From positions 433,082 to 497,081 of the forward strand of contig AP024679.1 of the NCBI GenBank assembly GCA_025999215.1: a stretch of 64,000 nucleotides of DNA, given 5' to 3'. Of the stretch, positions 8,421 through 64,000 are shown piece by piece; position 1 is the first letter of the stretch, and each line of letters opens with the position of its first letter. The DNA comes from Candidatus Dojkabacteria bacterium (GTDB taxonomy: Bacteria > Patescibacteriota > Dojkabacteria > J137). A program made the position numbers and the translations under genes. Under the pieces are notes generated by a model, which had not been told where the DNA came from, searched no databases, and saw nothing but the letters and a program-made list of their open reading frames with translations.

Positions 8421-9707
8421 CTATTTAACTTTTTCTATTTGTGCTCCAAGTGTTAAATAAGTTTCAACTAATTCAGGATAACGTCTGCTCAATTGATCTG
8501 TTTCGTCAATTAAGGTTGAAACGCCACTTGCACCAAGTGCCGCTACAAATAAAGCTTTGGCTGAAGCGATAATATTCGGAGCTTTGATTACTGTACCTTC
8601 TAATTTGCTTGGCCCAAAAGTTATCACTCTGTGAGGATCTGCCATTACAACATTTGCTTTAAGTTTTGCTAGCTCTTCTATGAAGTAAAAGCCGTACTCG
8701 TAAAATGAATTATGAAATATTAAACTTCCCTCTGCAAAACATGCAGCGACTACTAGTGATTGTATAGCATCAGGAGGAAATTGTGGCCAATGTAGCGCCA
8801 TAATTTGAAATAAATCTCCTCTAACAGTTTTGTGAGCTTTTAATTTTTGATTTTTAGGAATTATAAGTTTATCTCCTTCGTAGTAAGAGTTAAGATTTAT
8901 TTTTTCAAAGGCAGATCTAATATTTGTCATGTGTTCTGGAATTGCGTTATTTATAGTGAGCTCGCTTCCAGTGACAGCAGCTATTGCCATATATTCTGCG
9001 ATATCTAAATGATCACTTATCACATTCCACTCTGTTCCCTTAAGTTTATCTACACCATTTATCACTAATTTGTTAGAGCCAATGCCTTTAATTTTAGCTC
9101 CCATGCTAACCAACATGTTACATAAATCTTGAGTGTGAGGTTCACAAGCAGCATTGTAAATTTCTGTAACTCCAGGCGTTAGTACAGCCAAATTAATTAA
9201 ATTTTCTGTTCCTGTAACACTTGGAAACCAAGACCAAACTTTTGCGCCTTTTAATTTTTTTGCCTCTAAAAAATAACCTTTTTCTCTTCTGTAAACAGCA
9301 CCAAGTTGCACCATATTATCAATAAAAGCATCCAGTGGCCTTGAACCTAATTTACACCCCCCCGGTATAGGCATTTCAGCTTTTCCAAATCGATGAAGAA
9401 GTGGCGCCATAAACATTACAGAAGCCTTTGCTTTTTGGGATAAATCCTCATCGATTTTATAAGTATTAATACCTTTAGCTACTATTTTCACAGATGTTCC
9501 ATTGTTAAAATACGTAACCTTACCGCCGAGAGTTTTTACAATTTTAAGCATTATTCTTACATCAGAACTTTTAGGAACATTGTGTATGATTACTGGTTCA
9601 TCAGTCAATAAACTAGCTGGAATTAATTTTAAAATTGAATTTTTATTTGGAACTGGAGTAACCTCACCATTTAGTTCTATGCCTCCTTGAATTTTATATA
9701 CAGCCAT
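8421..9707 (-). CDS. murA: UDP-N-acetylglucosamine 1-carboxyvinyltransferase.
   Basis: The sequence MAVYKIQGGIELNGEVTPVPNKNSILKLIPASLL is the EPSP-synthase fold N-terminus. The length is 428 aa. Confidence 0.9.
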   Translation of the reverse strand: MAVYKIQGGIELNGEVTPVPNKNSILKLIPASLLTDEPVIIHNVPKSSDVRIMLKIVKTLGGKVTYFNNGTSVKIVAKGINTYKIDEDLSQKAKASVMFMAPLLHRFGKAEMPIPGGCKLGSRPLDAFIDNMVQLGAVYRREKGYFLEAKKLKGAKVWSWFPSVTGTENLINLAVLTPGVTEIYNAACEPHTQDLCNMLVSMGAKIKGIGSNKLVINGVDKLKGTEWNVISDHLDIAEYMAIAAVTGSELTINNAIPEHMTNIRSAFEKINLNSYYEGDKLIIPKNQKLKAHKTVRGDLFQIMALHWPQFPPDAIQSLVVAACFAEGSLIFHNSFYEYGFYFIEELAKLKANVVMADPHRVITFGPSKLEGTVIKAPNIIASAKALFVAALGASGVSTLIDETDQLSRRYPELVETYLTLGAQIEKVK

Positions 9708-9912
9708 TGATTAAATTTAAAATATTTTAATAATTATACCTTAAAATTAAAAATTACTCTAAAATTTCGAAAGGGGTAGTTAGATAATAACGTTAAAGTA
9801 TTTAGTATTCTAAAATTAAGAAAACCATTTTGCAGTTTTGGCTTTCTATGAGGATAACCAGGCCAGCAGCAAGGTCTATTTGCGCTTGTTGATTTTTTTT
9901 CTAAAATCAATA
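9688..9912. repeat. Copy A of a roughly 225 bp direct repeat. It spans the murA promoter/leader plus the first codons of murA.
   Basis: It is near-identical to 12190-12414 (over 95% in the promoter-proximal 130 bp and about 75% distally). It contains a TATAAT about 30 nt upstream of the murA ATG. Confidence 0.75.
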
Positions 9913-12148: not shown

Positions 12149-12205
12149 CTACAACATACTCAATGCATCTAACTCTACGCCTCCTTTAATTTTGTATACA
12201 GCAAT
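12149..12205 (-). pseudogene. Remnant of the murA 5' end (about 18 codons, no start codon).
   Basis: It translates to IAVYKIKGGVELDALSML*, matching the murA N-terminus MAVYKIQGGIELNGEV. It lies at the inner edge of repeat copy B, directly upstream of the 674-aa gene. Confidence 0.6.
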
Positions 12206-12414
12206 TGATTAAATTTAAAATATTTTAATAATTATACCTTAAAATTTAAAATTACTCTAAAATTTTGAAAGGGGTAGTTAGATAATAACGTTAAAGTATT
12301 TAGTATTCTAAAATTAAGAAAACCTTTTTTTCATTTTGGATTTCTGTGAGAACAACTAGGCCAGCAATAAGATGTTTTTGCACCTGTAGATATTTCTTTT
12401 TCTAAAAGGTTTAA
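12190..12414. repeat. Copy B of the roughly 225 bp promoter/leader direct repeat.
   Basis: See copy A. Here it now drives the 674-aa repeat-protein gene. Confidence 0.75.
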
Positions 12415-13818: not shown

Positions 13819-13895
13819 GGGCGCCTAGCTCAACTGGCTAGAGCATCCCGTTTACACCGGGAAGGTTATAGGTTCGAGTCCTATGGCGCCCACCA
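13819..13895 (+). tRNA. tRNA-Val (anticodon TAC). CCA is encoded.
   Basis: Acceptor GGGCGCC/GGCGCCC, anticodon stem TCCCG/CGGGA with loop TTTACAC, and T arm ATAGG-TTCGAGT-CCTAT. Confidence 0.85.
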
Positions 13896-14019: not shown

Positions 14020-14690
14020 GTGAGTAATGAAAAAATTAAACAAAAGGCAAAAAAGGTTAATGCGTTGTTAAAAAAAGAATACCCTATAGTTAAAACTCCT
14101 TTGCACCACAAAAATGCCTGGGAACTTTTAATTGCAGTTATATTGTCAGCTCAAACTTTAGATGAAACGGTAAACAAAGTTACTCCAAGGCTTTTTAAGT
14201 TATACAATTCATGTTATGAATTAGCTGGGGCTAATTTGGCTGAAGTAGAAGAAGTTATAAAAGGCGTAAATTATTATAAAACCAAAGCCAAAAATATTAT
14301 CAAGACATCTCAAAAGCTAGTAGAAAATTTTGATGGTAAAGTACCAAATAAAATTGAAGAATTAACAACTCTTCCTGGTGTTGGTAGAAAAACTGCCAAT
14401 GTTATAATAAACGAGTGGTTTTGTAGGCATGATCAGAAAGTTTTACCTCAGGGATTTGTTGTTGATACTCATGTAGCTAGGGTTTCAAAGCGTTTAGGTT
14501 TTACTAAGCATTCTGATCCTACTTAAAATTGAGCAAGATTTAATGAATTTGTTTGATCAGATCTGATTGGCCTGAGTTGAGTTTGAGATTGATTTTTCAC
14601 GGGAGATATAGGTGTACCGCTCGTCAACATTTATGTTGTGAGCATGATAGATTGGAGTAAACTTTGTCAATGTTTATGTTAACATTATGG
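14020..14690 (+). pseudogene. nth: Endonuclease III (Nth) with three or more frameshifts in the C-terminal [4Fe-4S] region.
   Basis: Frame 1 gives the HhH-GPD core through LPGVGRKTANVIIN...VDTHVARVS. The downstream KIEQDLMNLFDQI, DWPELSLRLIFHGRYRCTARQHLCCEHD and KLCQCLC pieces continue the Nth C-terminus in three other frames. Confidence 0.6.
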
Positions 14691-15963
14691 AATTTAATTT
14701 AGTTTCTGAGTATAAACCTGCTGGTGATCAACCACGAGCGATTGATACGCTTTCTAATGGTTTGCTTGCTGGGAATCAAGCACCAAACGCTTGGTTGGTG
14801 CGACCGGAACTGGTAAAACTTTTACAATGGCAAATATCATACAAAATCTTGGGAAACCTGCTTTAATTCTTTCTCACAACAAAACTTTAGCTGCTCAATT
14901 GTTTGCTGAATTTAAAAAATTTTTTCCTTACAATGCTGTTGAGTATTTTGTGAGTTACTACGATTATTATCAGCCTGAGGCTTATGTTCCCTCAAGAGAT
15001 TTGTATATTGAGAAAGATGCCGATATAAACGACACAATTGAGCGGTACAGGTCTTCAGCTAGCCAGTCGCTTTTGACAAGAAAGGATGTGATTGTAATTT
15101 CAACCGTTAGTTGTATCTATGGGCTAGGGAATCCTGCAGATTATTTAGAATTAAGTTTTGAATTTAATGTTGGGGAAAGTTATAAACGCGATAATATTTT
15201 AGCGCGACTAACAGATATGCAGTATGAAAGAAACCAACTTGATTTCATGCCTGGGAGTTTTAGAGCCATTGGTGAGATTATTGATATTTATTTAACAAAT
15301 GCAAATGATGAAGCTGTAAGGTTAGAGTTTTTTGGTGATGAATTGGAATCTATAAAGATAATTAATCCTCTAACAGGCGAGTTTGTAAAAAATTTAAATT
15401 CAGTTATTATTTTTCCTGCCAAACACTATGTAAGTCCACATCATAAACTAATGGAAACGATTGAAACAATAAGAGAAGATATGAAAAAAGAAGTTCAGCA
15501 ATTTTTGGATAAAGGAAAGGTGGTGGAAGCAACGAGACTTAAGCAAAGGGTTGAATATGATTTGGAAATGATTGCTGAAACAGGTTTTGTAAAAGGCATT
15601 GAAAATTATTCTAGATACATTGACAGAAGACCACCCGGAAGTGCGCCATCATGTTTAATTGATTATTTTCCTCATGATTACATTATGTTTATTGATGAAT
15701 CACATATAACTGTTCCGCAAATTGGAGGAATGTACAATGGCGATCGCGCACGGAAACAGAGCTTGGTAGATTATGGTTTTAGGATGAAAGCAGCGCTAGA
15801 TAATCGACCTTTGAAATTTGAAGAATTTGAACAAAAATTAAACCAAGTTATTTACACCACGGCAACGCCAAGGGATTATGAAATTCAGAAAAGCATGAAT
15901 GCAACAGAAGAAATTAGGGAAAAAAGCCCTCAAATATTCAGTGGAAAAATGTTAGAATATTAG
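14687..15963 (+). CDS. uvrB: Excinuclease ABC subunit B, N-terminal roughly 415-residue portion only. There is a -1 frameshift near 14775-14795 and a premature end at 15963.
   Basis: MEFNLVSEYKPAGDQPRAIDTLSNGLLAGN (frame 2) continues as LVGATGTGKTFTMANII...YFVSYYDYYQPEAYVP...FIDESHITVPQIGGMYNGDRARKQSLVDYGFRMKAALDNRPLKFEEF...YTTATPRDYEIQKS (frame 1), which is canonical UvrB. After EIQKS the frame diverges and stops. Confidence 0.85.
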
Positions 15964-15999
15964 AATGAAAATCAAGATTAGAAATATTTCACAAAAGGA

Positions 16000-16808
16000 A
16001 TGGTGATGGGTCTTGCTGAGGTTATCCCTGGAGTGAGTGGGTCAACCATGGCTTTGGTGATGGGTATTTATGATGATTTCATCAATCTACTCTACTCTTT
16101 TTCAAAGTTGGCGCAAAATTGTGTTGAGTTTTTGTTTCGAAAGAAAAGATTTTTTTGATCTTAAACAAGAGTTGACTGAACTATCTAGAATGGGGTTTTG
16201 CTATACCTTTGTTTTTCGGCATGATTGTGTCAATTTTATCTTTTGCCAATATTTTAAACTATTTCATTGATAAATCACCGGGTTACGTGCTTGCTTTTTT
16301 CTTTGGATTGGTGGTCGCATCGGTGTCAATTCCACTTCAGAGAGTTGGTAAGACCCAACATTTTGAAAGTTCTTTTGTTCTTGCTTCTCTCTTGCTTTTT
16401 TCTATTTTTTGCTTGGAGTTGATCCTATTGAGTTAAACGGTAAGCCAAATTTAGTTTATGTATTTTGTTGGGGGTATGCTTGCCATTTGCGCAATGAGTT
16501 TGCCTGGAATTAGCGGTTCTTTTATTTTGCTATTGTTGGGTTTGTATGAATACATTATTTCTATAATTAAAGATTTGTCTCATTTTAAGTTTAACTTCAG
16601 TGATTTTACTAGGTTGGTTGTTCTTTCTTTTGGTGTGGTGGCTGGATTTGTATTGTTTGTGAGAATACTAAAATGGTTGCTTTCAAAATACGAGGGCGAA
16701 TTGATGGCTTTTCTTGCAGGCTTGATGTTGGCATCGCTAAGAATTTTGTGGCCATTTATCGATAATTCACAGGAAGTTTCGAGAGTTTGGATGCTTATCC
16801 CAAGGTGA
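16000..16808 (+). pseudogene. DUF368 (COG2035) membrane protein gene with three or more frameshifts.
   Basis: The pieces VIPGVSGSTMALVMGIY..., FFGMIVSILSFANILNYFIDKSPGYVLAFFFGLVVAS and LPGISGSFILLLLGLYEYI are successive parts of one DUF368 protein, spread across three frames. Confidence 0.6.
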
Positions 16809-16914
16809 TGTTAGAGTTAAGTAACACTGAACACCTTGTACACGGTTGCAATTATTGTAGCAAGTGCTGTAGCCGTCTTAGTAATCAAAAAGATTTCTGA
16901 TAAAATTTAAGAGG

Positions 16915-18834
16915 TCACACCAAGGAAGCTTTGAGTCGCCTCAGGTTTGAGCCTATGTTTTCTTGTTTTAAAATTTTGAACTTTTTATTATTCTCTCCCA
17001 AAACTCCTGTTGTTTCAACATGCGGTCCTCCGCAAAACTCTTTTGAGAAACGCCTCATCTAAACTATTACCTATAAAATAAATGGTTACTTTGTCGGGAT
17101 ATTTTTGTCCAAACTCCATTTCTGCACCAATTTTTTGTGCTTCGCCTGAGAGGCATTTCTACTCTCTTCACTGGTAAATTTTCTGTGATCTTTTGATTGA
17201 CAATATCTTCAATTTTTTTGATTTCCTCTTCTGTAATTTTTTTTGAATAGTTAAAATCTATTCTTAATCTTTCAGAAGTTATGTTGCTACCTCTCTGGTG
17301 AATATTTTCGTCTAACACAAGCTGTAATGCTCTCAAAAGCAAGTGGTGAGCTGTGTGAAGCTTGGTTGTTTCGTGCGAGTGATCTGCCAAGCCTCCAGTA
17401 AATTTTTTTTGAGCGCCGGCACGAGATTGTTCTTTATGTTGTTCTAGCAACGTTTTAAAACCAACTATGTCTACTATAAATCCTATTTCTTTTGATAATT
17501 CTTGTGTCATTTCTACTGGAAATCCATAAGTTTCATAAAGATGGAAAGCTTCTTCACCTTTTAAGAAATTTCTATGAGGATTTTCGGATTTTTTGATATC
17601 AGTAACGATTTTGTAAAATTGCTTAATACCATTGTCTAGAGTTTTTCTAAATTTTATTTCTTCTTTATCTATTTCATCAATTATAAACATCTCCTTTTCT
17701 TTAAGATGAGGATAAGCATCTTTCATTTTTTCAATTACTAGGCTTGCCAAATCCTTGGTGAAATTTTTTTCTATTCCAAGAATTTTTGCATGTCTTATCA
17801 TCCTTCTGATTAAGCGCCTCAAAATATACCCTTGATCTTTGTTAGATGGCGCAATTCCATCGGCAAGAATAAAAGTTGATGCTCTTGCATGATCAGCTAT
17901 AATCCTGAATGCTTTCGTATATTTACTTCTGTTCTTCGTTGTGATCGTATTTGTGGCCTGATATATTTTCTATTGCGTTGATGTAGTCAATAAATAAATC
18001 AGTTTCGTAAACTGAGCGCTTGTTTTGAACTGTAGCGACAATTCTGTCTAGCCCTCCTCCATAATCAATGTTTTTTTGCTCCATAGGCTTCCATTTTCCA
18101 TCCTCAAATCTGTATTCCATAAAGACACTGTTTCCAATTTCTAAGTATCTTCCTGAATCATCATTAATGTGCAGTTTTTCTCCAGTATCATTTAATACTG
18201 TTTGCATATCATAAAAAATTTCTGAGCACGGTCCACCCAATTCTCCATTAACCTCGGGCCCTCTCTGCCACCAATTGTCTTTTTTACCATAAGGAAATAT
18301 TCTAAATTGCCAATTTTGACTTGATTCACCCTGTTGAGGAACATTTGTAATATCTTCACTAAATTTCGCTTCTATTCCATATTTTTTAAATGCCTTTATC
18401 CATGCGTCAATGGCTTCATCATCGCGAGGTATATTATCATCTCCTCCCCAGACGCTAGCAAAAATTCTTTGGGGATCAAGTCCGAACTTTTCTACATAAA
18501 GCTCCATTTTCCAAAGTATTTGTTCAGTTTTTGAAAAAGCGCCCAAAGACCAGTTACCGATCATTTCAAAAAAAGTTAAGTGATTGTAGTCGCCAACATC
18601 TTCAATATCATTTGTTCTTAGACATCTTTGTACATTACACAATCTTTTTCCCAAAGGATGAGGCTGTCCAGCTAGATATGGCACAAGTGGAAACATGCCT
18701 GAATTTACAAAAAGTAAAGTTGGATCATTATTTGGGACAAGGGATACATTCGGGATAATTTTTGCATTTCTTGGAGAACTTGTCCAAAATTTCAAAAATT
18801 CATTTCTTATTTCATCGGATGTTTTCATGAACAA
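16915..18834 (-). pseudogene. alaS: Alanyl-tRNA synthetase (catalytic, tRNA-recognition and editing regions) with three or more frameshifts. It ends without a C-Ala domain.
   Basis: The N-terminal core is LVPNNDPTLLFVNSGM...QRCLRTNDIEDVG...HLTFFEMIGNWS. Frame breaks occur at about 17920 (…EEQK* then KAFRIIADHARAS…), about 17148 (MPL then EAQKIGAEMEFGQKYPDKV) and about 17070 (…then FSKEFCGGPHVETTGVL…RRLKASLV*). Confidence 0.75.
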
Positions 18835-63779: not shown

Positions 63780-64000
63780 ATGAGTTTAATTCTTCCAAAA
63801 AATTACAAAGGTGTTGTCAAACAAGTGATTAGACCAACTGGGCTTTTGGATCCATTGGTTGAGGTCAGGCCAACCATGCCTGAAACTTTTGACAAACTTA
63901 AATTATCTTTACGAGAAAATGGATATGAAGACATGCCCACCTACAAAAAAACAACATGGTTAAAACCACAAATTCCTGATTTAATCGAAGAAATTGAAAA
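63780..64000 (+). CDS. uvrB: Excinuclease ABC subunit B, C-terminal portion (3' truncated by the window). It has its own ATG and an extended -10 promoter.
   Basis: [32 protein letters not shown] matches UvrB ...[23 protein letters not shown], exactly where the 14.7-16.0 kb copy breaks off. TGTTATAAT lies 9 nt upstream of the ATG. Confidence 0.8.
   Translation, partial: [73 protein letters not shown]

Follow-up and report, generated by a model that had tools for sequence, protein, structure and literature searches.

Four adjacent conserved genes in the genome of a Candidatus Dojkabacteria bacterium, KatS3mg085, are each spread over several frames in the open reading frame (ORF) listing, which raises the question of whether they are broken in the organism or only in its deposited sequence. 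The genes lie in a stretch of 64,000 nucleotides of contig AP024679.1 that was analysed as a whole and is called the window in the following; they comprise nth, the N-terminal-half gene of uvrB (uvrB-N), a gene of the DUF368 family, and alaS. The 15 frame breaks found in them are very probably errors of the deposited consensus and not mutations of the organism. The occurrence of insertions and deletions (indels) without substitutions or stops, the blindness of the affected patch to gene and strand limits, and an assembly made exclusively from HiFi reads at 10.8x coverage point to a local failure of the consensus rather than to decay.

The breaks were mapped by frameshift-aware protein-to-DNA alignment with the proteins of a syntenic relative, the JGI contig L005, and each site was then inspected by hand. 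This placed 15 frameshifting indels, of which three are located in nth, two in uvrB-N, seven in the DUF368 gene and three in alaS (Table 1). A preliminary description of the locus had recognized a cluster of frameshifts in the same four genes, with at least three breaks each in nth, the DUF368 gene and alaS and a single one in uvrB; the cluster is indeed present, and these counts were either right or conservative. When tblastn was run with the proteins of another relative, L006, the same frame changes were obtained. About 12 of the indels are insertions and about three are deletions, corresponding to a density of ~0.44% per base or roughly one per 228 bp. Between the two insertions in uvrB-N, five codons specify KHQTL, which is also the sequence found in L006 and in UvrB of Bacillus caldotenax.

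Removal of the indels restored coherent proteins. In the uncorrected DNA, pieces matching the Pfam families HhH-GPD/EndoIII, UvrB, DUF368 (VCA0040-like) and class II AlaRS are found in differing frames. After correction, nth covers positions 1-106 of 108 of HhH-GPD, and uvrB-N aligns in one stretch with residues 5-411 of B. caldotenax UvrB (PDB). The DUF368 gene product matches PF04018 from position 1 to 237 of 246 in a single stretch with 211 bits, where previously there were three fragments of 41-106 bits, and that of alaS matches positions 1-449 of tRNA-synt_2c plus tRNA_SAD. Both the HxxxH and the CxxxH editing motif are retained in alaS of the window.

Intact counterparts of all four genes are found in L005, arranged in the same order as in the window and encoding proteins of 237 (nth), 424 (uvrB-N), 310 (DUF368) and 637 (alaS) amino acids; the expected codon counts are ~220-237, 424, 310 and 637, respectively. 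In a second relative (L006 and L007), nth, uvrB-N (429 amino acids) and alaS (639 amino acids) are likewise all intact. Identity to L005 amounts to 64.5% over the aligned codons of nth (68.9% in a trimmed three-way alignment), 77% for uvrB-N, whose closest homologue is the L005 protein P0122, 52% for the DUF368 gene and 78% for alaS. The gene order in L005 is mutL, murB, murA, nth, uvrB-N, DUF368, alaS (on the opposite strand), followed by genes for a P-type ATPase, a cobalamin adenosyltransferase and an 853-amino-acid membrane protein. Judged by this gene order, the four genes of the window, which also lie between murA and the P-type ATPase gene, are the native, ancestral copies at the locus. 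Neither uvrB nor alaS is truncated, 424 and 637 amino acids being normal lengths in the relatives.

The damage is sharply confined. All 15 indels fall between 14521 and 17943; the location given in the preliminary description (14020-18834) was thus correct, while the breaks themselves occupy a narrower interval. No breaks occur in the initial 500 bp of nth or in the initial 885 bp of alaS. Hence, the edges of the patch lie within these two genes and not at gene limits, and genes on both strands are affected, which is what an artefact would leave behind. Under an even spread of indels, all 15 would fall within the 4.8 kb with a probability of 2e-9. Each of the 12 flanking genes that have L005 orthologues (13.4 kb of coding DNA) gave one full-length tblastn match with 0 frameshifts, in line with the earlier statement that the other long ORFs of the window are uninterrupted. 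Wherever else in the window 400 bp or more lack a long ORF, the DNA is taken up by small genes and tRNAs, and no repeats were found flanking the patch.

Real pseudogenes also gather nonsense mutations, missense mutations and deletions, and essential single-copy genes are spared from such decay. With the frames followed through the four genes, however, not a single in-frame stop was encountered in ~1590 codons, and there was no excess of substitutions; in other words, the damage consists of indels only, as expected of an artefact. The latter point is based on a relative-rate test with L006 as outgroup, in which amino acid replacements unique to the window were compared with those unique to L005. 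The counts were 12 vs 9 for nth, 28 vs 25 for uvrB-N and 28 vs 36 for alaS, that is, 68 vs 70 for the three genes together. The differences are not significant (p = 0.38-0.78) and resemble those of the control genes murB (23 vs 19) and murA (12 vs 17). Thus, neither of the two marks expected of pseudogenes was present, be it stops (all four genes) or accelerated amino acid change (nth, uvrB-N and alaS). Spontaneous substitutions in bacteria are several-fold commoner than indels, as is known from mutation-accumulation studies, and a ratio of 5-10 substitutions per indel, in keeping with such work, was used to simulate neutral decay. The resulting 75-150 substitutions produced 3-6 stops and 53-103 replacements, with a probability of 0.034-0.002 that no stop arose.

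The origin of the sequence is compatible with this interpretation. KatS3mg085 is a circular, 'finished' Dojkabacteria metagenome-assembled genome (MAG) of 862,240 bp with 852 coding sequences, a GC content of 31.4% and a mean coverage of 10.8x (Kato et al. 2022, PMC9671151). PacBio Sequel II HiFi reads filtered for >Q20 were assembled with metaFlye 2.8.3, and no polishing step is described, the word 'polish' being absent from the text of the paper (PMC9671151). Long reads as the only data, a coverage of 10.8x and a procedure in which polishing is not described together make for an indel-prone method. With 100% identity, the N-terminal alaS fragment of the window matches KatS3mg085_438 and the large uvrB fragment matches KatS3mg085_434, both of which carry the NCBI label 'hypothetical protein'.

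We propose that over ~3.4 kb the consensus was probably set by very few, rather poor reads at a local dip in coverage or, alternatively, by diverged strain haplotypes that were badly merged by the polisher. Either cause would leave single-base insertions (~12) and deletions (~3) at ~0.4% per base, and all four genes would be expected to be unbroken in the cell, as they are in the syntenic relative. A read barely above Q20 permits up to 1% error, and the observed 0.44% is compatible with one or very few poor reads. Random sampling was simulated with 10.5-kb reads at 10.8x for a genome of this size; the chance that 3.4 kb or more in a row were covered at most 3x was ~28%, with ~6% for 2x or less and ~1% for 1x or less. 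Because a dip to one read is only ~1% likely, collapsed strain variation is retained as an equally good cause, and the mixture of homopolymer and non-homopolymer sites fits a poor read and a two-haplotype consensus equally well. The preliminary description had favoured an artefact due to low coverage or strain heterogeneity, a suggestion with which all the indirect tests agree, namely the restriction to indels, the disregard of gene limits, the involvement of the essential and apparently single-copy alaS, and the seemingly unpolished 10.8x assembly.

Several observations weigh against a consensus error. The indels are somewhat unevenly distributed, ~1.2 kb in a row of uvrB and 0.8 kb of alaS being free of them inside the patch, and under ideal random sampling a depth of one read over 3.4 kb would seldom occur (~1%, see above). 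Errors that remain in HiFi data are for the most part indels in homopolymers, and about half of the indels found here lie outside any homopolymer of at least three bases (14521, 14558, 14649, 14777, 16841, 17144 and 17943); a plain homopolymer miscall is therefore insufficient to explain all of them. The other half can be placed in homopolymers (T7 at 16150, G4/T4 at 16192-16199, T6 near 16395, T4 at 16463, and T3 at 16777 and 17050). With 76 runs of three or more bases per kb in this AT-rich DNA, the homopolymer test is not decisive. Finally, the artefact is deduced and not observed: it is from indirect tests that we infer that the reads would lack support for the indels. A scan of metagenomes for same-species sequence with the clean N-terminal part of alaS returned 80 loci with 51% identity at best, and the best match in the protein database showed 68%; no contig of the same species came up in any collection. 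Exact-sequence look-ups of the neighbouring ATPase and of P0001 retrieved no recorded contig. A scan of a genome collection with the ATPase gave distant Firmicutes and Alphaproteobacteria only (24-31% identity).

Table 1. Positions of genes, frame breaks and further features. Coordinates refer to the window unless a relative is named; aa, amino acids.
Feature	Position	Strand	Basis or remark
tRNA-Val	13819-13895		Flanks the four-gene stretch
nth (endonuclease III, HhH-GPD)	14020-14682	+	Pfam, alignment to L005
Breaks in nth	~14521, ~14558, ~14649		All +1, in the C-terminal Fe-S part
uvrB N-terminal-half gene, natural length 424 aa	14687-15963	+	Pfam, alignment to L005
Breaks in uvrB-N	~14777, ~14794		Both +1, 17 nt apart, just before the Walker A motif GATGTGKT
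DUF368 / VCA0040-like gene (Pfam: 'undecaprenyl phosphate translocase-like')	15965-16910	+	Pfam PF04018, alignment to L005
Breaks in the DUF368 gene	~15986, ~16144-16156, ~16193, ~16365-16399, ~16463, ~16776, ~16841		-1, +1 (T7 run at 16150-16156), +1, -1, +1, -1, +1, respectively
alaS, short 637-aa form	16915-18828	-	Pfam, alignment to L005
Breaks in alaS	~17943, ~17144, ~17050		All +1
Presumed error-rich patch, 3.4 kb, with all 15 frameshifting indels	14521-17943	Both	Frameshift-aware alignment and inspection by hand
P-type ATPase, 852 aa	18868-21426	-	Other flank of the four-gene stretch
uvrB C-terminal-half gene	63780-64000, runs off the window	+	Own ATG at 63780, after an AT-rich spacer
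alaS in L005	12227-14140
alaS in L006	12500-14419
VTT/DedA-domain gene in L006	11428-12063		Slot between uvrB-N and alaS
VTT/DedA-domain gene in L007	6120-6755		Slot between uvrB-N and alaS
VTT/DedA-domain gene in L004	8854-9378		Upstream of alaS
Stretch of 4.3 kb without counterpart in L005	9708-14019
Direct repeats of 233 nt	9668-9900, 12166-12398		88% identical, including the 5' end of murA
Class II ribonucleotide reductase, 1204 aa	41130-44744	-

If the frameshifts were nevertheless real, they would have to be very recent, and all four genes would be inactivated in the sequenced population or in a minor defective variant that the assembler captured. The deposited sequence does carry the breaks, half of the sites have no homopolymer association, and gene loss is frequent among Patescibacteria, which are reduced symbionts; a symbiotic lifestyle is also suggested by Kato et al. 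(2022). We nonetheless consider this explanation improbable. Fifteen indels came with 0 nonsense codons and no excess of amino acid change; AlaRS is essential, and a second copy from this genome was not seen in the protein search; the damage ends sharply inside genes, next to 13.4 kb of untouched flanking coding DNA; and all four genes are intact in L005, as are nth, uvrB-N and alaS in L006/L007. More specifically, the sequenced DNA could derive from a Dojkabacteria subpopulation in which alaS, nth, uvrB-N and the DUF368 gene were recently and simultaneously inactivated, which we regard as quite improbable. The source might then be a burst of indel mutagenesis restricted to this locus, and such a subpopulation would persist only via complementation by co-resident wild-type cells or by a host.

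Real frameshifts would be easier to reconcile with viability if the segment were the decaying copy of a recent duplication whose intact copies reside elsewhere in the genome, the alternative entertained in the preliminary description, and direct inspection covered 64 kb out of 862 kb. The ancestral synteny speaks against it: the genes occupy the position between murA and the P-type ATPase gene exactly as in L005, which marks them as the native copy. Among the 120 best matches to AlaRS (down to ~39% identity), none besides the fragment P0001 is labelled as KatS3mg085, and no second uvrB-N from this genome besides the window fragment appeared in the protein search; many matches of the former and some of the latter lack a source name. 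A recent duplicate would top such lists. Neither a dispensable function nor a second copy of AlaRS thus came to light, as far as the protein searches and the directly inspected 64 kb go. As there are also no repeats flanking the patch and no extra substitutions on the window lineage, we hold a decaying duplicate to be very unlikely indeed.

Rescue of real frameshifts at the level of expression, whether through programmed ribosomal frameshifting or through transcriptional slippage of the kind that occurs at poly(A) tracts in insect endosymbionts, can practically be dismissed, because in spite of one site in a T7 run (16150-16156) and another placeable in a T6 run, most of the 15 sites lack a long A/T run or a slippery heptamer (seven are without any explanatory run of at least three bases), seven corrections within one gene of 310 codons would yield almost no full-length product, and none of the shifts occurs in the relatives.

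Truncated or fragmented proteins are an accepted, coverage-dependent sign of residual indels in long-read MAGs (IDEEL test; Sereika et al. 2022, PMC9262707). The locus shares with such artefacts the single-base breaks in conserved genes, the lack of other damage, the low-coverage long reads and the full-length proteins obtained on correction. It differs from them in that the breaks are gathered in one 3.4-kb patch instead of being scattered, lie to one half outside homopolymers and occur in HiFi rather than Nanopore data. Errors that are patchy and only half of which are associated with homopolymers suggest a local cause (coverage dip or collapsed strain variants) and not a systematic bias in base calling. 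Clusters of pseudogenes arising under reductive evolution are known from Mycobacterium leprae and recent insect symbionts. They likewise consist of adjacent frameshifted genes, and the small-genome symbiont lineage would match; by contrast, the cluster described here has 0 stops and no excess of replacements, and it affects alaS.

A consensus error at this locus has no biological import, as the four genes are most likely intact, and its value is that of a sequence-quality flag on the MAG. Fragments labelled 'hypothetical protein' can mislead metabolic reconstruction, in that AlaRS, base-excision repair, nucleotide-excision repair and undecaprenyl phosphate recycling seem to be missing, and fragmented genes can skew completeness, contamination and pseudogene counts. 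An alaS relative with 61% identity to the N-terminal fragment of the window (P0005, on L004, i.e. JGI 3300045909, Ga0496406_001274) was tried as a reference and dropped since its contig is itself chopped into tiny genes. L004 contains many genes of 30-150 amino acids, and its alaS is in pieces of 500, 46 and 49 amino acids, the last with tRNA_SAD. This suggests that L004 is another indel-laden public contig.

The short form of uvrB at this locus is of a different nature. As far as can be judged from sequence, the lineage naturally has uvrB in the form of two genes, which are located 47.8 kb apart in the window; the split is unrelated to the indel patch. The preliminary description had linked the frameshift cluster to a 'uvrB breakpoint'; this link does not hold, because a uvrB-N product of 424 amino acids is normal in the lineage (424 in L005, 429 in L006) and the C-terminal half forms a separate gene starting at 63780. 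More than 100 of the closest uvrB-N homologues measure 405-430 amino acids and are found on contigs of up to 1.19 Mb. Those with a source name belong to Dojkabacteria or other Patescibacteria, and a few more distant homologues are 650-674 amino acids long. The ORF of the C-terminal half begins MSLILPKNYKGVVKQVIRPTGLLDP..., and the full-length UvrB P0222 has a second match in the window, at 63804-63995, with its residues 424-487. The best representative homologue of this half, P0241, is a stand-alone protein of 301 amino acids with Helicase_C, UvrB and UVR domains.

In terms of B. caldotenax UvrB, the N-terminal gene corresponds to residues 5 to ~404 and the gene of the other half begins with residue 405. 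The cut at ~404/405 falls between the part comprising the ATPase, the beta-hairpin and the UvrA-interaction region on the N-terminal side and the part comprising Helicase_C, UvrB and UVR. No mention of a split uvrB was found in the literature, and a lineage-wide two-gene uvrB in Dojkabacteria is apparently a real and seemingly unreported feature. Nanoarchaeum equitans, with its split AlaRS and reverse gyrase genes whose products reassemble, offers a parallel in that uvrB, too, is present as two genes cut at a domain boundary. The differences are that another protein and a bacterial lineage are concerned, and that assembly of the two halves into an active UvrB is putative. The tail of the N-terminal half (...IFSGKMLEY) resembles the head of the C-terminal half (...NYKGVVKQVIRPTG).

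AlaRS of the lineage is short as well (636-639 amino acids); the catalytic, tRNA-recognition and editing (tRNA_SAD) parts are present, and C-Ala is lacking. Homologues in databases are often shorter still (303 or 461 amino acids). Both the window and L005 have the DUF368 gene in the slot between uvrB-N and alaS; L006 and L007 carry in this slot a gene with a VTT/DedA domain followed by an ORF of 143 amino acids without a Pfam match. A VTT/DedA-domain gene is also located upstream of alaS in L004. The DUF368 and VTT/DedA families have both been proposed to act as undecaprenyl-phosphate translocases, and it looks as if in this slot one analogue had been replaced by the other.

Upstream of nth, the window contains 4.3 kb without a counterpart in L005, where murA and nth are separated by a gap of ~400 bp. 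This DNA harbours the gene of a 674-amino-acid repeat protein, tRNA-Phe, an ORF of 276 amino acids without a significant Pfam match, and tRNA-Val. The 674-amino-acid protein has no Pfam match and is built of repeats of ~93 nt (31 amino acids), and its gene is situated between two direct repeats. A mobile element or island beside tRNA-Val was rejected as an explanation for the four-gene stretch because its genes keep the ancestral synteny and the extra DNA lies upstream of them. In the class II ribonucleotide reductase encoded elsewhere in the window, the barrel domain is matched in two stretches and a TSCPD domain is located at the C-terminus.

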